In this document: positions 18,455 through 52,600 of the stretch, piece by piece | Layout: every line of letters begins with the position of its first letter | Numbering within the stretch: the stretch's first letter is position 1 | From: Candidatus Levybacteria bacterium RIFCSPHIGHO2_01_FULL_41_15 | GTDB taxonomy: Bacteria; Patescibacteriota; Microgenomatia; Levybacterales; UBA12049 | Assembly (NCBI GenBank): GCA_001782165.1 | Contig: MFNV01000006.1 | Coordinates: 444-64,443 of the forward strand | Reading direction: 5' to 3' | DNA: 64,000 nucleotides | The notes under the pieces: generated by a model | The model's database searches: none | What the model saw: only the letters and a program-made list of their open reading frames with translations | Told to the model about the DNA's origin: nothing | Translations under genes and position numbers: made by a program

Positions 18455-19021
18455 CTACTTAAGCGACTTAAGTCTATCATTTAACCTTCGTTTAAACAAG
18501 TTTTCCGAAAACCCACCCTCCTTAATAAATTTTTCCTCAAGAGCCTTAATTTGTCTATTTAAAAGGAAGGTCGCTTGATGACATAGAGTCAAAAGAAAAT
18601 TTGCCGCCTCTTGAGGATTCTCTGGCAAAATTGGTTTCTCTTTTAAGTTACCTAAGTCACTTAAGTTACTTAATGAGGTCAAACGAAAACTATTTTTCCT
18701 AAACTCCGCTATTCTTCTGTCTGTCTTTAACCAAATCTCCAATTTTCTTTGCCTTAAAAAATCTTCATAATCAGCTAGTAATTCTTCTAAAGATGCCATT
18801 GAAACACCAAGCAATTTAATTTCACCCTTTTTAGAAGTCTGACTCTGGCCCACTCCTTCAATAATATTCTGTTTCCCCGATCTTGCGGCTTGAATCATTT
18901 GCTCCCGATTGCGGCGGTTATCAAATCCATATAAAAACTTATTGCAAAATACAACAGTTAAATCATGGATTATTTCGCAGTATCGATAAGTTAAGAGATA
19001 TTTATATTTGGGCAGTGGCAT
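18455..19021 (-). CDS. Four-helix-bundle protein (the family often found in 23S rRNA intervening sequences or next to tRNA genes), with an in-frame ACTTAAGT-repeat insertion
   Basis: YLLTYRYCEIIHDLTVVFCNKF...QMIQAARSGKQNIIEGVGQSQTSKKGEIKLLGVSMASLEELLADYEDFL matches the family pattern; low-complexity LTSLSNLSDLGNL is encoded by repeats at 18640..18678. Confidence 0.55.
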   Translation of the reverse strand: MPLPKYKYLLTYRYCEIIHDLTVVFCNKFLYGFDNRRNREQMIQAARSGKQNIIEGVGQSQTSKKGEIKLLGVSMASLEELLADYEDFLRQRKLEIWLKTDRRIAEFRKNSFRLTSLSNLSDLGNLKEKPILPENPQEAANFLLTLCHQATFLLNRQIKALEEKFIKEGGFSENLFKRRLNDRLKSLK

Positions 19022-19065
19022 TATTTGTATTTTATCAGCAAGAAAGCTAAAATACTAATGAAAAG

Positions 19066-19140
19066 CGGAGACTAGTTCATCGGTAGAACGCTCGGTTCGG
19101 GACCGAGAGGTAGAGGGTTCAATTCCCTCGTCTCCGACCA
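19066..19140 (+). tRNA. tRNA-Pro (anticodon CGG), CCA encoded
   Basis: Acceptor CGGAGAC/GTCTCCG, anticodon stem CTCGG/CCGAG loop TTCGGGA, T GAGGG-TTCAATT-CCCTC. Confidence 0.8.
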
Positions 19141-19271
19141 GGTTAAACCTTGAGTTTTGTGACCTATGATCTATGACGATCTATGACGATACGGGATCGG
19201 AAAGGGATCGTCTCGGGCTAAACTAACTCTCCGGAAAAATTTTTGATTTTTCCGACGTTTAGTTTTAATCT

Positions 19272-19574
19272 TTAACCTCCGTAGAGTAAAGTACCGAAAA
19301 AGATTGTGGCGCCAAGAATTACTCCTAGTATTCCGTTTACGATAATAACCTTCTCTTTATGGATAATTCCATAAGTAAACCAGATTATTGCGGTGAAAAC
19401 ATATGCAAGCCAAGTTATTGAAGAGACTCCCGCCACATTTTTCTTTGTATAAATATCAAATAACTGGGGAATAGTAATTAAAGGGCTTGCCGTTGCAACA
19501 ATCATTATGACCGCATTTAGGGATTTATGAAATATTGATGCATGCTTTTTGTGAACCGGATGCTGATGTAACAT
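19272..19574 (-). CDS. SemiSWEET / PQ-loop small sugar transporter
   Basis: 100 aa, 3 TM helices, PQ motif in TIPQLFDIY. Confidence 0.6.
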   Translation of the reverse strand: MLHQHPVHKKHASIFHKSLNAVIMIVATASPLITIPQLFDIYTKKNVAGVSSITWLAYVFTAIIWFTYGIIHKEKVIIVNGILGVILGATIFFGTLLYGG

Positions 19575-19638
19575 ATAATAAATATATCAGAAATAAAAAC
19601 TTATTGAAATTAAAACGTAGATATGTCAGAATTACAAA

Positions 19639-20367
19639 ATGGAAAAACTGACCAAGAAGCAGAGGAAAGAACTTAAGAAATTTGAGTGGCAAGAAAAATT
19701 AAAATCTCAAAAGAGAAATGAAATGCTTAAGAAAATTGCAATTTGGGCGGGAGCCGCGCTTCTTTTGATCTTATCTGTCTGGGGGCTTATTGCTCTTTCC
19801 AGTTCAAGTCCAGACCAACAAAATTCCTCAACCCGAATTCCGCAAGTCTCAAAGGAGGATATAAAAATCGGTTCGGAAAGTGCGCGAATCACTCTTGTCG
19901 AATATTCTGACTTTCAGTGCCCGGCATGCGCCGCATACCACCCCATGGTCAATCAACTAATTTCGGAATTTGAAGGGAGAATGCTTTTTGTTTACCGCTT
20001 TTTCCCTATTCAAAGCCATCAAAATGCAATGATTTCTGCCCAAAGTTCTTTAGCTGCACATAAGCAAGGCAAATTCTTTGAGATGTACAATCTTCTTTTT
20101 GACAACCAGAATTCCTGGGTAAACTCGTCAAACGCTGAAAAGATTTTTGTAGAATATGCCGGCAAACTCAATCTTGACATTGATAAATTCAAAAGCGATC
20201 TTAAGAAAGACGAAACTAAAAATCTTATAAACAACCAATATAGTCAGGCGATTGCGATTGGAGTAAACTCTACCCCGACTTTCTTTCTAAACGGAGTTAA
20301 AATCCAAAACCCGAGAACCTATGATGATTTTAAGAACCTGATTCAAAATGAACTTAATAAAAAGTAA
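19639..20367 (+). CDS. DsbA-like thiol:disulfide oxidoreductase (thioredoxin fold), membrane-anchored
   Basis: CxxC motif DFQCPACAAYHP; N-terminal TM. Confidence 0.75.
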   Translation: MEKLTKKQRKELKKFEWQEKLKSQKRNEMLKKIAIWAGAALLLILSVWGLIALSSSSPDQQNSSTRIPQVSKEDIKIGSESARITLVEYSDFQCPACAAYHPMVNQLISEFEGRMLFVYRFFPIQSHQNAMISAQSSLAAHKQGKFFEMYNLLFDNQNSWVNSSNAEKIFVEYAGKLNLDIDKFKSDLKKDETKNLINNQYSQAIAIGVNSTPTFFLNGVKIQNPRTYDDFKNLIQNELNKK

Positions 20368-23737: not shown

Positions 23738-25456
23738 CTACATTTTTGTTGGGGATTCGATACCGAGGAGATAGAGGCCGGTTTTGAGGGTCTGACCGAC
23801 TCCTCGCGTGAGTTTTAATCTAAACTCTTCGTTTTCACTTTCCAGAATCTTATGTTTTTGATAAAAATTATTAAACGCCTGTGAAAGTTCAAAAAGATAA
23901 TTGCAGAGAAGATTTGGAGCAAAACTGTCTCCGGCCTCCTCTACAATTTCTGGGAAGTGAATCAGTAATCTTAAAACCAAGAGTTCTTCCTTTTCAAGTT
24001 TAATATTTTCTGAATTCTGAATTCTGAATTCTGAATTCCGAGCATTTGCGAGCACACTTTGCGTTCTCGCAAAAGTATATTGAATATACGGTCCTGAATT
24101 GCCCTCAAGATTGATCGACTCTTTGAAACTAAAGGTGATATCGGATTTGCGGGAAAATTTAAGCACAGAGTACTTTACAGCCCCTACAGCCACTTTTTCC
24201 AAGGTTTCCTCCTCCATTTGTTCGAAATTTTCTTTTAACCTTCTTTTCGTCTCATCCAAAAGCCACTCCCCCGAAATTATGTTTCCAAGGCGGGATGACA
24301 TTTTCGTATCTTTTAAACTCACAAAACCAAAAGAATAATGGAAAGTTTTTTTGGCAAGATCCGGAAAAACCTTATCAAGCGCTTGCAAAACTACTTTAAA
24401 GTAAGATACCTGTTCATTTGCGGTAATAATTATTGACTCGTCGTAGGGAAAATCGTCAAATTTTGCCGATGCCAAAGCCAAATCCTTGGCCTCATATGTT
24501 CCGTAACCATCGCTTGTTACAAAAACTCTAGTGTGCTTTCCGCGGAAAACCACAGCACCTTCATGTCTTTCAAAAATCCCATCTTTGATATGAGACAGAA
24601 CAATCTCCCTTCCAGGTTCTTCAACCTCGCTTTCAAAATAATATCTTTTGTATTTGGTTCCTAATCTTTTATAAATATCTTCAAAATGCTCAAGACTCCA
24701 CTTTCTCCCCTCTCCCCAAAGTTTGTTCAATCCTGGGTCTGATTTTTGATAAATTTTAAGATTTATTTCCCGAATTTCTTCCTGTGCTTTTTTATCTTCC
24801 TCGTACGCTTTTGCACCTGCCGCGTACGCTTCTCCCAAAAATTTTGCTCCTTTGTCTTTTGACTTTAAATTTTGAATTTTGAATTTTGACTTTTGAATTC
24901 CATAAATCGCTTTTGCAACATGCATTCCAACATCCCCTTGATAGTTGGCTCGAAAAACTTCTGCGCCTTGAAACTCCAAAAGCCTTGAAAAAGATTCCCC
25001 CAAAGCTATATTTCGAAGATGGCCTATGTGAAATTCCTTAAAGGGATTGGGGTCTGCAAACTCGAGCATTATTTTCTGCTTGCCCCGCGGAGCTTTCTTG
25101 ACCTTCGAAGTTTTAACGAAGGAGGTAGCGAAGTGGGGTTTCCCGTAATTTTCATCTGATGCTATTTGATGCAGTTTTTCTGTCAGATATTTCTTGGAAA
25201 GAAAAAAATTAAGAAATCCGGGCGGAGAAACTTCAATCTTCCCAACTTCGGGTACATTTTTTTGAAGCTCCTTTGAGAGGAAATTTCCAAATTCAATCGG
25301 GTTTTTATATTTATCCTTTACTTTGTGAAAAAAGGTAAGAGGAGCGTTCGTGGAATAATCTCCATATACTATATCAATCTGTACCTCCACTTCAAACTTC
25401 TCCTTTATGATCTTCTCAAGTTCTTTCCTAAGCGCTCTCTCAATCTTTCCCTTCAT
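23738..25456 (-). CDS. argS: Arginyl-tRNA synthetase, carrying in-frame repeat-derived insertions
   Basis: HIGH motif FHIGHLRNIALGE; class-I core and C-terminal anticodon-binding domain; 572 aa. Confidence 0.9.
   Translation of the reverse strand: MKGKIERALRKELEKIIKEKFEVEVQIDIVYGDYSTNAPLTFFHKVKDKYKNPIEFGNFLSKELQKNVPEVGKIEVSPPGFLNFFLSKKYLTEKLHQIASDENYGKPHFATSFVKTSKVKKAPRGKQKIMLEFADPNPFKEFHIGHLRNIALGESFSRLLEFQGAEVFRANYQGDVGMHVAKAIYGIQKSKFKIQNLKSKDKGAKFLGEAYAAGAKAYEEDKKAQEEIREINLKIYQKSDPGLNKLWGEGRKWSLEHFEDIYKRLGTKYKRYYFESEVEEPGREIVLSHIKDGIFERHEGAVVFRGKHTRVFVTSDGYGTYEAKDLALASAKFDDFPYDESIIITANEQVSYFKVVLQALDKVFPDLAKKTFHYSFGFVSLKDTKMSSRLGNIISGEWLLDETKRRLKENFEQMEEETLEKVAVGAVKYSVLKFSRKSDITFSFKESINLEGNSGPYIQYTFARTQSVLANARNSEFRIQNSENIKLEKEELLVLRLLIHFPEIVEEAGDSFAPNLLCNYLFELSQAFNNFYQKHKILESENEEFRLKLTRGVGQTLKTGLYLLGIESPTKM
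24012..24039. repeat. Tandem 7-mer (GAATTCT)x4 inside argS, encoding ...NSEFRIQNSEN...
   Basis: Read directly from the sequence. Confidence 0.7.
24861..24900. repeat. AAATTTTG/GAATTTTG-type low-complexity repeat inside argS (encodes QKSKFKIQNLKSK)
   Basis: gactttaaattttgaattttgaattttgacttttgaattc. Confidence 0.6.
25079..25145. repeat. RPE-like GC-rich palindromic element inserted in-frame in argS (encodes GKPHFATSFVKTSKVKKAPRGKQ); related copies at 32000..32038 (leuS) and 42420..42447 (intergenic)
   Basis: cttgccccgcggagc...ccttcgaagttttaacgaagg...gcgaagtgggg; internal perfect 6-bp stem CCTTCG/CGAAGG. Confidence 0.55.
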
Positions 25457-28945: not shown

Positions 28946-29574
28946 TAATAAATCGTAATTTTATCTTTTATTTTATCGAAGACCGAGCTGCCCACTATTT
29001 TTTTTGAAAGCAGATCATCTATGGTCTGGTAAGGCCTCCCTTGTATTATTTTTGATGCCGTAGCAGGCCCTATTCCAGACAAAGTATCTAATTCTTTATC
29101 AGATGCAGTATTTATGTTTATTAAGCCTCCTGATTGAATACTGGCTCCTCCCTGAACTTGGGAAGAGGTAAATGTTTCCCCTTCAAACGGTATATAAATT
29201 TTTATTCCGTCCGTAACTTTTAAAGCAAGATTTAGATTCTTGGCTACCCAATTTCTATCTGCACCTGAAGAAAGACCTCTGGCTGCTACCAGTACGTCTT
29301 TTACCCTTGATTCCTTGGGCAAATTATAAACTCCGGGAGAAACAACCGCTCCTTCTATATCTACTACGATCTGGCTATCTTTTTTATTACCTGAATTCAC
29401 TTCCGATGATTGGCTTGCTTTCTCAAATGCAATATCATTTGAGTTTGATGATGAAACTAATAACCCTATCACACCATATCCTAAAAGTATCACTCCCAAA
29501 AAACCCAAAATTAGCGGCAAGAGGTTCTGTCGGATAAGAGGAACTAAAGAGTCACTAAGGTTTTTATAATCCAT
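28945..29574 (-). CDS. comEA: ComEA DNA-binding competence protein (SLBB + tandem helix-hairpin-helix)
   Basis: ININTASDKELDTLSGIGPATASKIIQGRPYQTIDDL HhH motif. Confidence 0.75.
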   Translation of the reverse strand: MDYKNLSDSLVPLIRQNLLPLILGFLGVILLGYGVIGLLVSSSNSNDIAFEKASQSSEVNSGNKKDSQIVVDIEGAVVSPGVYNLPKESRVKDVLVAARGLSSGADRNWVAKNLNLALKVTDGIKIYIPFEGETFTSSQVQGGASIQSGGLININTASDKELDTLSGIGPATASKIIQGRPYQTIDDLLSKKIVGSSVFDKIKDKITIY

Positions 29575-32125
29575 TGTCTAAAACGAAGTTTATTACCTTC
29601 CCTTTGATATAAACAATGTCTTTGATCTTCCTTTTGTTTAAGTATTTTTGCACCCTTTGACTTTTCCTGGCAGTTTCCTCTATTTTCTGCTGATCATTAA
29701 TATGGGCTGAGTCAACCCTTAAAACATCCCGGGTTTTACCATTTATCTGAACGGCGATAGCAAAAATTTTTTCTGCCAAATATTCTTCTTTAAAACTGGG
29801 CCATGAGGCTTTATGAATAGAATCTTGGAAATTTAAAGCATGCCATAACTCCTCTGAAAAGTGCGGAGCAAAAGGACAAATCAAAAGAAGAAAAGTTTTA
29901 ACTTCATCTTTTGATATATTTTGTTCCTTTGACAAAAAATTATAATATTCCATAAGCGAAGCTATCGCAGTATTGTATTTAAGATTATCGATATCTTCTG
30001 TGACTTTTTTTATTGTTCTATGAAGCTTTGAGAGAGACTTGACTGAAACACTTTTATCTGAAATTTTGGTTAGACAAAGAACCCAAGCTCTTTTTAAAAA
30101 TCTGAAACACCCCTCAACGCTTTCCTCACTCCAGAGAACAGTTTGGTCAAAAGGTCCCATGAACATCTCGTAAATTCTCAAGGTATCTGCCCCAAATTTA
30201 TTGATTATTTCATCAGGATTAATGATATTTCCAAAGGACTTACTCATTTTTCTGCCGTCTCTCCCTAAGACAATCCCGTGTGAGCGTCTCTTTGCATATG
30301 GCTCAGGATTCGGCACTACACCAATGTCAAATAAAAATTTGTAGACAAACCGCGAATACAAAAGATGCAAGGTGGTATGTTCAAATCCGCCTTGATAGAT
30401 ATCAACCGGCATCCAATAATCCATTTTTTTCTTATCGGCAAGAGCCGAATCATTGCCAGGATCTAGATAGCGTAGAAAATACCAGTTTGAACCAGCCCAG
30501 TTTGGCATAGTATCTGTTTCGCGTCGTGCTTTTCCGCCACATTCTGGGCATTTTACCTTGAGCCAATCTTTGGCAAGCGCCAGGGGAGATTCTCCCGTTC
30601 CTGTTGGCTCATATTCTTTAAGGAACGGAAGCTCAACCGGCAGATCTTTTTCAGGAACCGAAACAGCTCCACATTTTTTGCAGTGTACTATTGGAATTGG
30701 CTCTCCCCAATAGTGCTGTCTTGAGAAAACCCAATCGCGGAGATGATAAACTGTAACTCTCTTACCCCAACCTTTTTCTTCAATATAATCCATTATCTTT
30801 TTTGTAGCCTCATGAATATCCAATCCATTGAGAAAATCCGAATTGATCATTGTTCCCTCTTCTTCTTGGACCTGAGAAGCTTTTGTGATTGGCGATCTAT
30901 CGCCATCTTTGCCAACAACCACACGGATTATTGGTAACTTAAAACTTCTAGCGAATTCGAAATCGCGAATATCATGACCAGGCACGCCAACAACTGCACC
31001 CGTCCCAACATTACCTAGAACAAAGTCACTCACCCATATTGGCATCTTTCTTTTGTTCAAGTCGTTAATCGCGTACGATCCCGTAAAAACTCCGGTTTTC
31101 TTCCTGCCTTCTGCGATTCTTTCAACCTCTGATTTTCTTACTGATGCATTAATATATTCTTTGACTACTTTTTTATGTTTTTCTTTTGTTATCTTAAGAA
31201 TAAGCGGGTGTTCAGGACCAACTACTATGAAAGTTGCGCCAAAATTAGTATCGGGCCTTGTCGTGAAGCACTCGATCTGATATTTACTATTTTCTATTTG
31301 ATATTTAATGTTGATTCCTTCTTTTTTTCCAATCCAATTTATCTGCTGTATGGCTATTTTTTGAGAGTAATCAACCAGTTTTAAATCTTCTAAAAGTCTA
31401 TCGGCGTATTTTGTAATCTTAAGAAGCCATTGTTTTTGCATTCGCTTTTGAGTTTTGGTGCCACAGCGTTCATGTGTTCCGTCTAATAAGACTTCTTCAT
31501 CCGCCAAATTAGTCTTACACGATGGACACCAGTTTACTGGAACATCTGCCTGATAAGTCAATCCCTTTTCAAAAAATTTTAAGAAGATCCACTGAGTCCA
31601 TTTGTAGTACTTAGGATCGGTCGTGTTTATTTCGCGGCTCCAGTCAAACGAAAGACCTAGGGATTTACACTGTTTCTTAAATCTTTCAATGTTTTTTGGG
31701 ACAATAGTAGAAGGGTGGACACGCATCTTCAAAGCGTAGTTTTCAGCAGGCAAACCAAAAGCATCCCAGCCAATTGGATAAAGCACATTCTTTCCTTCCA
31801 TTCTTTTCTTTCGGGAATACGCATCCATTGCAGACCATGAGCGGATATGTCCTACATGAAGACCTGAGCCTGAAGGATAGGGAAATTCGATCAAAACATA
31901 AAATTTCTGCCGCTTATCAAAATCTATGGCCCTATAAAGTCCCTCCTCCTCCCACCTCTTCTGCCATTTTGGCTCTATTAAACTTGGGTTATACTTCTGC
32001 TTGCCCCGCGAAGCCGCGTTTGACGCGGCGAAGTGGGGCCATTTGGGTTCAATTTCCGAAGGATTATATTTTGGAATCATGATTTTTACCTTTTCTTTTT
32101 TGTTTTTTGATTTTAAATTAGCCAT
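29564..32125 (-). CDS. leuS: Leucyl-tRNA synthetase, with N-terminal in-frame insertion/duplication
   Basis: HIGH region YPSGSGLHVGH; KMSKS; class-Ia editing domain; 853 aa. Confidence 0.9.
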   Translation of the reverse strand: MANLKSKNKKEKVKIMIPKYNPSEIEPKWPHFAASNAASRGKQKYNPSLIEPKWQKRWEEEGLYRAIDFDKRQKFYVLIEFPYPSGSGLHVGHIRSWSAMDAYSRKKRMEGKNVLYPIGWDAFGLPAENYALKMRVHPSTIVPKNIERFKKQCKSLGLSFDWSREINTTDPKYYKWTQWIFLKFFEKGLTYQADVPVNWCPSCKTNLADEEVLLDGTHERCGTKTQKRMQKQWLLKITKYADRLLEDLKLVDYSQKIAIQQINWIGKKEGINIKYQIENSKYQIECFTTRPDTNFGATFIVVGPEHPLILKITKEKHKKVVKEYINASVRKSEVERIAEGRKKTGVFTGSYAINDLNKRKMPIWVSDFVLGNVGTGAVVGVPGHDIRDFEFARSFKLPIIRVVVGKDGDRSPITKASQVQEEEGTMINSDFLNGLDIHEATKKIMDYIEEKGWGKRVTVYHLRDWVFSRQHYWGEPIPIVHCKKCGAVSVPEKDLPVELPFLKEYEPTGTGESPLALAKDWLKVKCPECGGKARRETDTMPNWAGSNWYFLRYLDPGNDSALADKKKMDYWMPVDIYQGGFEHTTLHLLYSRFVYKFLFDIGVVPNPEPYAKRRSHGIVLGRDGRKMSKSFGNIINPDEIINKFGADTLRIYEMFMGPFDQTVLWSEESVEGCFRFLKRAWVLCLTKISDKSVSVKSLSKLHRTIKKVTEDIDNLKYNTAIASLMEYYNFLSKEQNISKDEVKTFLLLICPFAPHFSEELWHALNFQDSIHKASWPSFKEEYLAEKIFAIAVQINGKTRDVLRVDSAHINDQQKIEETARKSQRVQKYLNKRKIKDIVYIKGKVINFVLDNGL
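32000..32038. repeat. RPE-like palindromic element inserted in-frame in leuS (encodes PHFAASNAASRGKQ)
   Basis: cttgccccgcgaagccgcgtttgacgcggcgaagtgggg; perfect stem GCCGCG/CGCGGC. Confidence 0.55.
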
Positions 32126-42359: not shown

Positions 42360-42452
42360 CTACACTTCGCTCTTTGAGCTTCGCGTAGCACAGCCCTAAG
42401 AAGCGAAAAGGAAGAACTGTATCCCGCGAAGTTTTAACGAAGTGGGAAATAT

Positions 42453-42689
42453 ATGTTTTATGTTTACATTTTAAAATTAAAAAATGGTCAATTTTACACA
42501 GGATTTACGAAAGATCTAGAAATACGAATTAAAAGACATAACTAGAAGGCAGTTAGGACAACTGCAAGGCTTAAATCAAAAGAATTAATCTTTTATGCGG
42601 CTTTTAAAAATAAGAGAAATGCTCTAAATTTTGAAGAATACTTAAAGAATTCATCAGGATTTGCATTTAGAAATAAACGTCTAATTTAA
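42453..42689 (+). pseudogene. GIY-YIG nuclease family small protein (UPF0213-like) interrupted by an in-frame TAG at codon 31
   Basis: MFYVYILKLKNGQFYTGFTKDLEIRIKRHN*KAVRTTARLKSKELIFYAAFKNKRNALNFEEYLKNSSGFAFRNKRLI. Confidence 0.55.
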
Positions 42690-49793: not shown

Positions 49794-49958
49794 GTGTCAG
49801 CCACCGAAATAGGACTGCAGATTGCCATAGTACTGCTTGCCGGCATCTGGTTCCCTGTGATCCTTGCGCACTGGCGAAAGAGGCCTTTCGACGGCTTTGT
49901 TCTAGGACTGCTGGGCATAATGATAACTAGCATCCTTGAACTCTTGCTGTGGGCCTAG
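49794..49958 (+). CDS. Island ORF 1: 54-aa two-TM membrane peptide (GTG start, SD AAGGAGGTG)
   Basis: VSATEIGLQIAIVLLAGIWFPVILAHWRKRPFDGFVLGLLGIMITSILELLLWA. Confidence 0.45.
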   Translation: MSATEIGLQIAIVLLAGIWFPVILAHWRKRPFDGFVLGLLGIMITSILELLLWA

Positions 49959-50023
49959 CTTGACAACCGAATATAGCAATCGTTCTAGCCTTCGCGCAAG
50001 CGAGGAGACAAAGGAGGACTCAA

Positions 50024-50266
50024 ATGGGGAGCCTAATCGAGTTCTACTCAAGGCCCCTTGAGTGGGTTGCAAAAGTACCCCACTCAATTCACAGTCGTCC
50101 TAGCGACGATAGCGGTTGGGGGTCAGCTTGTTATGCTAGCCCTGCTGATCAAGGCCGCCATCGACTGGATCTAGCCTCCGCGGAAGCGCGTGAAGAGATC
50201 CCTGAAAGGAGGCGATGTGAAATCGTTGATCGACGCTTACCTTCTGTTTGGCAGGCTTCTGTTTAA
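50024..50266 (+). CDS. Island ORF 2: 80-aa hydrophilic protein (SD AAAGGAGG 9 nt upstream); an alternative overlapping SD+GTG ORF at 50217..50294 (25 aa)
   Basis: SD then ATG; coding status of the two overlapping frames is unresolved. Confidence 0.3.
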   Translation: MGSLIEFYSRPLEWVAKVPHSIHSRPSDDSGWGSACYASPADQGRHRLDLASAEAREEIPERRRCEIVDRRLPSVWQASV

Positions 50267-50401
50267 ACGCAGATGGCCAACCAGGCGAAGGTAAATCCAC
50301 CCAGCGCTTGTGTTCGCTCAAGTCAAGCTTCAGAAATCGCGTCTAACGCGACAAAGAGGCTGACAAGATGCGCGCACAAGCTAGCTTCAAAAGGAGGTTC
50401 C

Positions 50402-50560
50402 GTGGCTCGAAGCGAGAGAAAGAAGCGCAAACAACAGAGTAACGGAAGCGGCAAGCTGAAGCGCAGGCCAGAACCACCACCCGATGAAAAGCCCCCAGAC
50501 GAGGAGAAATCCCCTCTTTCTAGCTCAAGTAGCACAAGTAAAGGAGGCAGTCGGATGTGA
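50402..50560 (+). CDS. Island ORF 3: 52-aa basic/acidic low-complexity peptide (SD AAGGAGG at 50391 then GTG; the longer ATG form starts at 50273)
   Basis: VARSERKKRKQQSNGSGKLKRRPEPPPDEKPPDEEKSPLSSSSSTSKGGSRM; stop TGA overlaps the next GTG (GTGA). Confidence 0.35.
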   Translation: MARSERKKRKQQSNGSGKLKRRPEPPPDEKPPDEEKSPLSSSSSTSKGGSRM

Positions 50561-50688
50561 ACGGCAAGAAACGTCCTCCCAAACAACCGAATAGCGGGAA
50601 GCACCGCCATCGGCATAGGAACGGCAATAACCTTCGATTTCGCGGACCCCGAGGGATAATGACGGCAAGAAAGGAAGCGAGAAGATGA
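50557..50688 (+). CDS. Island ORF 4: 43-aa highly basic peptide
   Basis: SD AAGGAGG at 50541; VNGKKRPPKQPNSGKHRHRHRNGNNLRFRGPRGIMTARKEARR; stop overlaps the next ATG (ATGA). Confidence 0.35.
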   Translation: MNGKKRPPKQPNSGKHRHRHRNGNNLRFRGPRGIMTARKEARR

Positions 50689-50798
50689 GGCAACTCATTA
50701 TAATCGCTATCCTGACTGCTGTAGGGATCGGCATTTACCTCATCCTGCGAAAGCCGAGGAGGAAACCACGAAAGGACGCTCATGGACGAAGCGAATGA
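50685..50798 (+). CDS. Island ORF 5: 37-aa single-TM peptide
   Basis: MRQLIIIAILTAVGIGIYLILRKPRRKPRKDAHGRSE. Confidence 0.4.
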   Translation: MRQLIIIAILTAVGIGIYLILRKPRRKPRKDAHGRSE

Positions 50799-51039
50799 AG
50801 ATCGCCTGACAAAGATGCGAAAGCGCGTGGAGGTAGTCGTTGTGTTAATAGCCATCTTGGCTTTAATAAGCCTTGTGGCTTTGTTCCTCTCGATCAACAA
50901 TCGGGAAGACACGACGACACCGACACCCACACCAACGGCAACGAACCTTAATCTAGAGGAGGTGATGCCTAGCAACACTAACCTCGTATTGACAAGCCTA
51001 ACCTCGCCAATGGCGAGCGTATCACACTTGGAGGTGTGA
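50782..51039 (+). CDS. Island ORF 6: 85-aa single-TM protein with Thr/Pro linker
   Basis: ...RKRVEVVVVLIAILALISLVALFLSINNREDTTTPTPTPTATN...; overlaps ORF 5 end. Confidence 0.4.
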   Translation: MDEANEDRLTKMRKRVEVVVVLIAILALISLVALFLSINNREDTTTPTPTPTATNLNLEEVMPSNTNLVLTSLTSPMASVSHLEV

Positions 51040-51040
51040 A

Positions 51041-52054
51041 ATGACCGAAAATGTCAACAACACTGGACAACCGAATAACGACGGCAACGATGTTGTCAGC
51101 CCTCCCCCGTCTGAGCCCCCGACCACAACCGGCGGCACAAGCGGCAGGGGCAACAGTGACCGCAACGGTGGTGGCACATCAGCGCTTTCTCCTGTACATT
51201 GGGCGTTCATTGTCATGGCAATGGCCGCTATCGCACTAGCCGCCTTCATCCTGGTGGATGCTCTCAGCGGCAGCGGCAACGGATCGACGGCGGCCAACGC
51301 GACCACGACACCGGCATCACCGGCTGCTCTGACCATGGTGTCCTTTCCAACCCTGACGCCCGCGGCTGCAGGCACTGGCACGATTCCCGATCTCCCCAAG
51401 GACGCTTCTCACGGGAAGTGGACCATTAAGGAGAACGCGGCCATCGACAGCGACCCTATCGTGAGAGACGTACTCGACCGGCTTGAGGATCCGAATCCCA
51501 GCCAGTGGAAGTATTTCCCGAACGTCGGAAACCCGGATCGTCCGGATTTCCCGTCTGAGCCTGACCGGCCAGCACCATGGGGCGCTGAATACGGCGTAGC
51601 AAACGTGCCGTTCTGTCAGCAGGACATGCGGTGCGACTTCCAAGTTCCGGGCTGGAGCTACCGTCTTGTGACGGCCGACTACGGCTTTCTGGACAGGACA
51701 TGCCAGAACGACGGCACCAAGGGATGCTTGCTTTTGCTCATCAACGTGAGCGATCAATCATTCACCTGGCGCAACCAGATGGCCGACAACGGCTTTACGG
51801 TTCACGGTCGCTACTGGGACGGTGATCATCTCGAGTGGGCTATTCTCGGACTGACGAGCCACGCCAGCGCCAACATGCTGAACCTGCCGACCTTTGCCCG
51901 TGCGGGCGAGGTCCTCAACGCAGGAGGCAGCTCAAGCAATGCCGGCGCCAACTGTGGCAACCAGCCAGAGTCTTGTGCATCCGTCGATGTACGCGTAGTC
52001 GTCCATGCGGGTGAGCGTGTGCTCGCGGAAGCGACAATCGTAGTCAACCGGTAG
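51041..52054 (+). CDS. Island ORF 7: 337-aa membrane-anchored protein: Pro/Thr/Gly-rich N-terminus, one TM, extracytoplasmic Cys-containing domain
   Basis: SD GGAGGTG then ATG one nt after ORF 6 stop; TM HWAFIVMAMAAIALAAFILV; 8 Cys in the C-terminal domain. Confidence 0.5.
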   Translation: MTENVNNTGQPNNDGNDVVSPPPSEPPTTTGGTSGRGNSDRNGGGTSALSPVHWAFIVMAMAAIALAAFILVDALSGSGNGSTAANATTTPASPAALTMVSFPTLTPAAAGTGTIPDLPKDASHGKWTIKENAAIDSDPIVRDVLDRLEDPNPSQWKYFPNVGNPDRPDFPSEPDRPAPWGAEYGVANVPFCQQDMRCDFQVPGWSYRLVTADYGFLDRTCQNDGTKGCLLLLINVSDQSFTWRNQMADNGFTVHGRYWDGDHLEWAILGLTSHASANMLNLPTFARAGEVLNAGGSSSNAGANCGNQPESCASVDVRVVVHAGERVLAEATIVVNR

Positions 52055-52600
52055 TCCGGTCGACAACACCCGAGGGCATAGTGGAGTCTTAACCCCCAAC
52101 TGAGAAGTCCACCTAGACTTGCCCTCACCCAGCAAATTTCGAGGCGGTGTAACCCCCCCCTCCGCCACCGTCTCACTTTCTAAACTCGCGTTGTACCTCC
52201 TACAACGTCGAGGCTTCCTTTTCTGGGATTTCTACAGGAAGATCGGAATGGACGCCGTTACCCAGTCCTCCCCTCCGGGGGATAACCAATAAGATATGCT
52301 GATCGAAAGATTGGCATTTTCCTGGGAGGGGCACAAGTGCGAAAGCACAGCGTTGAGATCATTTTGATTCTCTCTTGCTTCACCAATTGCGGTGATACCA
52401 AGACTGATCAATTTGATCCTTCGCTTCTGCATACCTTCCCTTTTGAGCTCATCAACCATAGGCTGGTGGATTCAAAAGGGAAATTTAAAATTTAAAATCT
52501 ATATCCTCTTTAAATTTCAAATGCTGTGTCTTCAATCTTGCAATCGAACAAAAGACGTTAAGTTTTTGCAAATGAGTACATCAGGAGGATTCCTCGCAAA

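Follow-up and report, generated by a model that had tools for sequence, protein, structure and literature searches.

What are the GC-rich segments that interrupt argS and leuS in a 64-kb stretch of DNA (38% GC; hereafter the window) from Candidatus Levybacteria, a lineage of the Microgenomates in the Candidate Phyla Radiation (CPR)? The two genes encode aminoacyl-tRNA synthetases (aaRS), and each carries a copy of one element, in the same orientation and N-terminal to the HIGH motif (ArgS HIGH, residues 143–146; LeuS HVGH, residues 90–93), as described in the original prediction, which had been made from the letters of the window. Both copies have the form CCCCACTTCG-(self-complementary core)-CTYCGCGGGG-CAAGCAG; an exact 11-mer and, with one mismatch, an 18-mer common to them are found in the window at these two sites only. 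The same element occurs at more than 100 non-homologous sites, in unrelated genes, in three reading frames, and in intergenic DNA. We consider that the inserts are probably miniature, non-autonomous hairpin repeats which have spread through the CPR, are placed by an enzyme acting in trans, and are tolerated in proteins as whole-codon modules. Mobility, whether current or former, is something that we infer from the distribution and nesting of the copies.

The element, referred to below as family A, follows the consensus CCCCAC-TTC-G(core)C-TTC-GCGGGG-CARGCA, which specifies a 6-bp outer helix, a conserved TTC/TTC internal loop bounded by G-C pairs, a variable inner hairpin, and a 3′ CAAG tail. 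Among the self-complementary cores, CCAAGG is the most frequent (16 copies), ahead of CTAAAG (8 copies), and 83 of 103 copies have a core whose length is divisible by three, so that the canonical unit measures 33 nt, or 11 codons; the argS and leuS inserts measure 63 and 42 nt. Both strands fold alike, into the 6-bp outer helix, a symmetric 3 × 3 internal loop (UUC/UUC, or GAA/GAA on the opposite strand), and the inner helix. For the leuS copy, whose inner hairpin has 7 bp (GCCGCGT/ACGCGGC), the folding energy is −19.9 kcal/mol for the sense strand and −25.2 kcal/mol for the reverse strand. The mRNA-complementary strand folds better because a conserved A·C mismatch turns into a G·U pair there.

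A covariance model built from 37 canonical, unrelated copies recovered all copies in the window, the leuS element with 41.6 bits (E = 3e-6). Among 117 matches to the model, 99.7% of pair cells are canonical and four of the seven pairs show compensatory double changes, a result equaled by none of 500 shuffles, although the test is limited by the fact that most of the sequences had been chosen by their exact arms. Divergent copies that had not been so chosen show compensatory changes as well (TCCCAC...GCGGGA, CACCAC...GCGGTG, CCCTAC...GCAGGG, and, in the window, CTACAC...GCGTAG), and the sequence of the outer helix varies and co-varies between subfamilies. A structural scan that is independent of sequence detected exactly five elements in the window; 10 shuffled versions contained none. 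Two of the five, at 42360..42388 (+) and 42422..42447 (−), form an inverted pair between two tRNA-Ala genes (42360..42447) and are weaker than the argS and leuS copies. In the copy at 42415..42447 the first pair of the outer helix has changed from C-G to T-A, which is compensatory, and in that at 42360..42395 two compensatory pair changes maintain the outer helix. A degenerate copy after tRNA-Ala had been predicted correctly, but it is not the only one there: a further locus, 42360..42388 (+), adjoins the 3′ end of the tRNA gene. The elements do not have the makeup of intrinsic terminators, since the tail is CAAGCA with no U tract, position +1 is C in 82% of copies, and most copies lie within open reading frames (ORFs). 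Against Rfam, four tRNAs were the only matches in the window, and nothing was matched at its elements or in five element loci.

The argS insert is composite. Removal of 30 nt, CCTCCTTCGTTAAAACTTCGAAGGTCAAGA, leaves CCCCACTTCGCTAAAGCTCCGCGGGGCAAGCAG, a canonical 33-mer, and the outer element without the inner 30 nt has the canonical form CCCCACTTCGCTAAAGCTCCGCGGGG, present for example in locus L022. The inner piece belongs to a second and equally widespread family, B (CCTCCTTCGTTAAAACTWCGGAGG), which is built like family A, with TWC in the internal loop: a perfect 6-bp helix Y-CCTCC/GGAGG-R and TTCG come before a TTAAAA core, with CTWCG and the CAAG tail after it, and the whole measures 30 nt; its outermost pair (positions −1/+1) co-varies as T:A or C:G. 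The family-B pattern CCTCCTTCGTTRAAACTWCGRRGG was found in at least 119 metagenome stretches, the chance expectation being, by a rough estimate, about 0.1. At least 11 of 114 distinct family-B copies are nested in another element. Two positions recur, one in the loop GCTA^AAGC, as in argS (near-replicas in L187 and L225), and one in the right arm GCTT^CGG (L154 and L214). A further conserved hairpin repeat, GGATTCCCGC-NTTNG-CGGGAATGAC, directly abuts family-B copies on their upstream side in L189, L195, L198, and L234, four metagenome contigs that are unrelated, which suggests that more repeat families co-localize with the elements. The features of the window are collected in Table 1.

Table 1. 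Host genes, element copies, and associated repeats in the window
Feature	Position	Strand	Description
argS host gene	23738..25456	-	572 aa; Pfam-confirmed
leuS host gene	29564..32125	-	longest ORF 853 aa; Pfam-confirmed; NCBI records: 829 aa
argS insert CCCCACTTCGCTACCTCCTTCGTTAAAACTTCGAAGGTCAAGAAAGCTCCGCGGGGCAAGCAG	25076..25138	-	63 nt; ArgS residues P107–Q127; peptide PHFATSFVKTSKVKKAPRGKQ
argS outer family-A element	25076..25138	-	CCCCACTTCG-CTA^AAG-CTCCGCGGGG-CAAGCAG; loop broken by nested element (covariance model, 38.8 bits, and structural scan)
Nested family-B element CCTCCTTCGTTAAAACTTCGAAGG with tail TCAAGA	25096..25125	-	30 nt, 10 codons; in loop of argS outer element (16 bits, local match; structural scan)
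leuS insert CCCCACTTCGCCGCGTCAAACGCGGCTTCGCGGGGCAAGCAG	31997..32038	-	42 nt; LeuS residues P30–Q43; peptide PHFAASNAASRGKQ; family A
leuS upstream duplicate KYNPSEIEPKW	32039..32071	-	11 codons; modeled as disordered
leuS downstream duplicate KYNPSLIEPKW	31964..31996	-	canonical LeuS N-terminal motif; aligns with N-terminus of all orthologues; folded, pLDDT 84–94
Intergenic copy TCCCACTTCGTTAAAACTTCGCGGGA with degenerate tail	42415..42447	-	33.3 bits, E = 1.4e-4; structural scan
Degenerate intergenic copy CTACACTTCGCTCTTTGAGCTTCGCGTAG	42360..42395	+	adjoins 3′ end of tRNA-Ala(CGC); structural scan; 14.4 bits, E = 0.68, weak alone

Family-A copies in low-GC loci were sorted by position: 61 lie in the sense orientation in long ORFs, 22 lie antisense, and 23 are intergenic, and about 70% are within ORFs of at least 120–150 codons. 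All three sense frames are used (31, 17, and 13 copies). Family A is largely stop-free in all six frames, and family B has one in-frame stop. Depending on the frame, the canonical unit encodes PHFAKASRGKQ, PTSPRLRGAS, or PLRQGFAGQA; the sense frames give peptides rich in Pro, Gly, Ser, Arg, Lys, and Ala, and the antisense frames peptides that contain Cys, Trp, and Leu. If translated, a stretch such as NYGKPHFATSFVK would cross an insert junction. The core is divisible by three in 43 of 48 copies deep in sense ORFs versus 18 of 29 intergenic copies. This preservation of frame speaks for translation of the copies rather than their removal. Orientation relative to replication was judged from local GC skew, and in this measure replication strand and gene strand are confounded.

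The host ORFs are diverse: 74 of them cover 112 Pfam families and include class I and II aaRS, ribosomal protein S2, Pth, MiaB-like enzymes, SecA, ribonucleotide reductase, ThyA, UvrD, TsaD, DprA, and ClpB. Given this range of hosts, both window copies seem to lie near a HIGH motif because a linker or N-terminus there is permissive, and not through any function specific to aaRS. The boundaries of the copies carry no sign of target-site duplication, matching 2–5-mers being in no excess at any of the offsets examined in 103 copies. Only L021 and L098 have long direct repeats at their flanks; the 11-codon duplicate that accompanies the leuS copy is thus not a general signature of the element family.

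A scan for family A with the pattern CCCCACTTCG-N6–36-CTYCGCGGGG, taking one genome per species, returned at least 120 stretches. Among the 80 matches listed, 50 carry CPR labels and come from Saccharibacteria, Peregrinibacteria/Peribacteria, lineages of Microgenomates and Parcubacteria, Berkelbacteria, and Andersenbacteria. The element is thus not specific to this lineage and is found across CPR phyla. Another 14 of the 80, all with canonical copies, come from low-GC metagenome-assembled genomes (MAGs) labeled 'uncultured Gammaproteobacteria' (L002, L004, L031, L033, L036, L038, L039, L048, L050, L051, L056, L065, L078, and L080). One record with this label is a 915-kb chromosome (OZ246414.1), and L080 encodes an ArgS with 51% identity to that of Microgenomates. 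Mistaken labels are one possible explanation, an element that extends past the CPR another. Thirteen of the 80 are GC-rich or long-spacer matches, chance-like in appearance, and the last three are labeled Nanoarchaeia, Bdellovibrionales, and 'bacterium'. A canonical 26-nt copy with a T-run after it (L006, 2507..2532) is carried by a 3.9-kb contig that binning had assigned to Candidatus Nanoarchaeia (DPANN archaea); either the binning is wrong or the element occurs in both domains. When viral contigs (IMG/VR) were searched for phage carriage, only three long-spacer matches were obtained.

Orthologues were compared for both host genes. In the 19 closest ArgS orthologues (61–68% identical, from an alignment of 120), the linker reads NYGK-GxxLxxK-KIMLEF with no insert, and in the window it reads NYGK-PHFATSFVKTSKVKKAPRGKQ-KIMLEF. 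In a syntenic relative, L121, the site is empty, and a native loop of 21 nt there is replaced in the window by the 63-nt insert. The element, which had been placed at 25079..25145, really spans 25076..25138; in the peptide said to have been added to ArgS, the 'GK' before PHF is native, NYGK being conserved in the orthologues. The same linker is occupied in other lineages by related GC-rich inserts in other frames or in degraded form (P0054, PTSLKLRGT; L080, PHFAKASRGEQ; P0058, P0065, P0049, and P0073), and canonical copies are present elsewhere in ArgS, at about residue 50 (L133), at residue 216 (P0068), and at about residue 470 (P0050, P0106, and L116). At least four positions in ArgS are therefore occupied in different lineages, and the linker is a hotspot that has been filled in different frames. 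Relaxed family-A patterns produce false positives in this protein; one candidate extra copy in L121 (7761..7786) was rejected when the fuzzy match proved to be the native conserved motif GLHVAKALWG.

In LeuS, the closest orthologue (P0122, 81% identical) has no element, and the site is occupied in orthologues that are 62–70% identical (P0129, P0130/P0136, P0149, and P0160), P0160 having in addition a second copy in a different frame. Since the site is shared at only this level of identity, the insertion is either old or recurrent. Occupation of the same site in distant orthologues, which the original prediction had named as the mark of an ancestral feature, is seen, in a formal sense, for the leuS copy alone. 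The arms of the leuS element are approximately 70–90% identical between lineages, a comparison that is unbiased by the choice of exact arms.

The leuS copy is flanked by two versions of the LeuS N-terminal motif (KYNPSEIEPKW and KYNPSLIEPKW) that differ at 10 of 33 nt. The duplicate is present in three lineages. P0129 and P0130/P0136 have the same arrangement; a shortened version exists in P0160 and perhaps also in P0131. Changes between lineages are mostly synonymous or conservative in both duplicates; a strain variant, W29C, in the upstream one suggests that it is under relaxed constraint. Recombination between the duplicates would delete the element precisely and may explain its patchy distribution. 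Public LeuS records have 829 aa and start at MEPKW, 24 codons into the longest ORF, which would need a non-ATG start; the duplicated N-terminus and the element evidently confuse gene callers.

AlphaFold2 models of both proteins were made with the orthologue alignments. In ArgS (mean pLDDT, the predicted local distance difference test score, 91.6 for the whole model), the insert is placed in a coil, residues 101–127, that joins the N-terminal domain to the first Rossmann strand, with pLDDT below 50 at 111–124. In LeuS, residues 1–41, comprising the upstream duplicate and the element, are modeled as disordered (pLDDT below 50), and the downstream KYNPSLIEPKW takes the canonical position. Both inserts are thus predicted to lie in disordered surface segments.

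The process that we envisage is as follows. A trans-acting enzyme would recognize the folded single-stranded hairpin together with the flanking bases TTCG and CAAG and insert the DNA in a manner like that of REP or IS200/IS605 elements, as RAYT and IS200/IS605 TnpA do, making no duplication. Copies landing in linkers, loops, or termini would be translated into disordered segments and tolerated, owing to their whole-codon length, their largely stop-free sequence, and the Pro/Gly/Ser/Arg/Lys/Ala-rich peptides of the sense frames. Tolerance in coding DNA would in turn allow copies to persist in genomes that have very little non-coding space. In the window, an element would have gone into the ArgS linker that connects the N-terminal domain with the catalytic one, a second would later have entered its loop, and the extreme N-terminus of LeuS holds a copy as well.

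Several observations weigh against this interpretation. The predicted in-frame insertion into argS is real, but it was not a clean insertion: the event cost approximately 21 nt of native sequence, so that about seven native residues are replaced by a nested pair of elements. The ArgS and LeuS clusters at 90% identity take in MAGs from the Rifle aquifer (RIFCSPLOWO2_01_FULL_38_13 and RIFCSPHIGHO2_01_FULL_41_15), and all strain variants and cluster members keep the inserts, with no empty alleles among them. A search of metagenomes for a shorter argS allele, with an empty site or with the outer element only, gave 0 matches. Among the material analyzed we found no transposition event, no empty and filled pair from near-identical strains, and no mobilizing gene. 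Arms do not differ from one phylum to another, yet within a single genome the cores vary from copy to copy. In addition, where copies are orthologous (MiaB-like genes, L013/L072; Pth, L031/L106; a Peregrinibacteria gene, L007/L029/L082), the arms are kept and the cores have changed by compensatory substitutions, with flanks only 61–72% identical, a contrast of arm with flank that is inflated by the use of an exact-arm pattern to find the pairs. Identical arms with compensated cores look more like purifying selection on each copy than like the neutral decay of selfish DNA.

The search for a mobilizing enzyme adds to these points. Related Levybacteria have a single RAYT-like Y1_Tnp gene (approximately 205 aa) a few genes from argS (L130, 13793..14407; L132–L136), in the order sortase, Avd/IVP-like gene, Y1_Tnp, (DsbA), NDK, peptidase M16, argS. 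Such an order is typical of a transposase that has been domesticated and is inherited vertically. In the window, the corresponding slot (18455..19639) contains tRNA-Pro and a 100-aa ORF and no Y1_Tnp. A profile (a local hidden Markov model from 120 RAYT-like proteins) detected no RAYT gene in the window and none in the roughly 0.9 Mb that surround more than 100 elements, save the known gene of L130, and the Y1 genes of L130 and L132–L136 are not flanked by elements. For the window and the loci analyzed, a link to RAYT was rejected on these three counts: no gene near the elements, no elements flanking the genes, and an empty syntenic slot. Of the characteristics of IS200/IS605 elements, the hairpin and the lack of a duplication are present, and no linked Y1 TnpA was found in the window or in the element loci; the conserved CAAG beside the hairpin could be a cleavage or target site. 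The extra length of the NDK gene, which was also considered, is not derived from the element.

Six nucleotides past the inverted pair, between the tRNA-Ala genes, a 30-codon ORF (42453..42545, +; MFYVYILKLKNGQFYTGFTKDLEIRIKRHN) ends in a stop; it resembles a small GIY-YIG nuclease of which only the N-terminal half is left, truncated by that stop. In 1.9 Mb of loci, both of the two GIY-YIG regex matches, including that in L255, lie no more than 110 nt from an element, and a profile search returned too few such genes for the association to be assessed. Two related Levybacteria, L122 (2153..6448) and L130 (1..1153), encode, some genes upstream of leuS, proteins of approximately 1350–1430 aa with repeated Phage_int_SAM_1 domains.

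The strongest alternative, which we nevertheless regard as rather unlikely, is that the element is a functional cis-signal under selection at each site, i.e., a binding or processing site in mRNA or DNA for a factor shared by CPR bacteria, or a DNA-uptake signal of these naturally competent organisms, with insertion serving as delivery; roles in RNA stability or processing, in translational pausing at domain boundaries, or in nucleoid and replication functions come into consideration. Such a signal is compatible with a mobile origin. It would account for arms (10 + 10 nt) that are identical in Saccharibacteria, Peregrinibacteria, Microgenomates, and Parcubacteria, for the compensatory changes that maintain the helices even at the orthologous sites with diverged flanks, and for the filled leuS site in lineages related only distantly. 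The sense orientation is favored approximately 3:1, and several intergenic copies are directly upstream of a ribosome-binding site or beside tRNA genes, which is likewise what a signal would predict. However, the milder peptides of the sense frames can explain the sense bias without an RNA function, the host genes and the positions within them are heterogeneous, and a copy is usually missing from the closest orthologues. Nesting would break a functional hairpin, and no Rfam family matches the element. As for an uptake signal, the density of five copies in 64 kb is low, and such signals arise by point mutation, not by insertion of 10–21 codons.

Very unlikely, by our reckoning, is a reading in which the segments are not translated, being removed from mRNA like introns or hopped over by the ribosome as in T4 gene 60 or the Magnusiomyces 'byp' elements. 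A precedent exists in the GC-rich byp elements of AT-rich mitochondrial genomes, the hairpin of the CPR element is stable, and leuS would offer take-off at the first AAA-TGG and landing at the second, the two AAATGG codon pairs being identical, 75 nt apart, and flanking the element plus one duplicate. Yet copies deep in ORFs preserve the frame and are stop-free, which would be needless if they were removed, and the downstream leuS duplicate evolves as coding sequence. An archaeal-type bulge-helix-bulge intron does not agree with the geometry of the element, in which the two 3-nt loops stand directly opposite each other, and no ribozyme or intron family matches it. Finally, we give practically no credence to the idea that the shared peptide is an ancestral or convergent N-terminal feature of class I aaRS, or a product of chance or assembly: both window copies are upstream of HIGH motifs and several LeuS orthologues have the peptide at the same site, but this reading is effectively refuted by DNA that in three frames encodes three unrelated peptides, in about 70 unrelated proteins and also in intergenic regions, by its presence in independent assemblies from many projects, and by the absence of matches in shuffled controls.

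If the inserts are mobile hairpin repeats, as we favor, they behave in a known way. Like Rickettsia palindromic elements (RPEs), to which they had been likened, they are palindromic repeats of a reduced genome that occur in-frame in essential genes and beside RNA genes, are translated, sit on protein surfaces, and have no linked transposase; the comparison is sound as regards behavior, given the more than 100 non-homologous sites, the three frames, the nesting, and the disordered surface segments. RPEs are approximately 100–150 bp long and confined to Rickettsia. The present element has a unit of 30–33 nt in whole codons, occurs CPR-wide, and is often nested; it is 3–4 times smaller and belongs to another phylum, and is not a member of the RPE family, a distinction drawn from size and taxon, no relationship in sequence being expected. 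With repetitive extragenic palindromes (REP) and REPINs it shares an imperfect palindrome of 20–40 nt, conserved bases beside a variable hairpin, the lack of target-site duplications, and one inverted pair, that after tRNA-Ala (42360..42447). REPs, however, are extragenic with a GTAG/CTAC head, whereas the copies described here are mostly intragenic with conserved bases TTCG...CTTCG...CAAG, and RAYT genes are flanked by their REPs, whereas no RAYT gene is near any of our elements.

The small dispersed repeats (SDRs) of cyanobacteria, which Elhai et al. reportedly described in 2008 as 'very small mobile repeated elements', are similar in having palindromic units of about 20–30 nt that are nested, lie inside genes and other repeats, and have no associated transposase. 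Taxa and sequences differ, and we know of no SDRs with codon modularity, conservation across a superphylum, or a dominantly intragenic location. Yeast mitochondrial GC clusters and the byp elements are also short GC-rich palindromic insertions in AT-rich, gene-dense genomes, sometimes in coding sequence; GC clusters of the M class create a duplication of a short target, and byps, which the ribosome skips, can disregard the frame. The CPR element, in contrast, makes no duplication and preserves the frame. Miniature inverted-repeat transposable elements (Correia/NEMIS, RUP, ERIC, and Nezha) are non-autonomous dispersed repeats with inverted termini that are occasionally in-frame, but they are 100–400 bp long, end in terminal inverted repeats, and owe direct target-site duplications of 2–10 bp to DDE transposases, and so fit neither in length nor in duplication. 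Uptake sequences of competent bacteria (the DUS of Neisseria and the USS of Pasteurellaceae) resemble the element as clade-conserved short motifs that occur in several frames and sometimes as inverted pairs; they are 9–12 nt long, arise by substitution, and occur about once per kb, unlike the 30–33 nt of extra DNA found here in five copies per 64 kb.

We conclude that the behavior is of a known kind, as in RPEs, REPs, SDRs, and mitochondrial GC clusters, and that the family itself is distinct. The properties that appear new are the codon-modular unit of 30–33 nt, the defined loop and tail, the CPR-wide conservation, and the systematic nesting. Full-text searches of the literature, including searches with DNA and peptide strings, found no description of the repeat family, subscription journals being covered in part; the original statement that nothing of the sort had been noted in this kind of genome agrees with this result. 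A 2024 perspective on Patescibacteria mentions only rRNA insertions.

Elsewhere in the window, a 2.4-kb island at approximately 49900..52300 has 50–64% GC, compared with 38% for the genome, and carries a 337-aa ORF (51041..52054, +) with an N-terminus rich in Pro, Thr, Gly, and Ala. The island is possibly foreign DNA.

CPR bacteria, or Patescibacteria, account for a very large share of bacterial diversity, one that is poorly understood, and are usually called streamlined and poor in mobile DNA. Against this background we offer, as a tentative suggestion, that the elements are coding-adapted selfish modules that colonize essential genes for want of non-coding space and are kept uniform throughout the superphylum by a conserved hairpin-recognizing enzyme or factor, a subset of them, e.g., the leuS copy with its duplicate, having perhaps been co-opted as an RNA or DNA signal or as a linker. 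If the interpretation of the inserts as mobile repeats is true, it would explain many lineage-specific 'insertions' and Pro/Gly/Arg-rich low-complexity segments in CPR proteins. The element would be a simple nucleotide marker for CPR contigs and for doubtful taxonomic labels, and a likely cause of assembly breaks and of miscalled gene starts, such as that of leuS, which is 24 codons shorter in the NCBI records. It would also point to a hairpin-recognizing activity that is CPR-wide, and its copies amount to a natural experiment on the tolerance of essential enzymes to peptide insertion.

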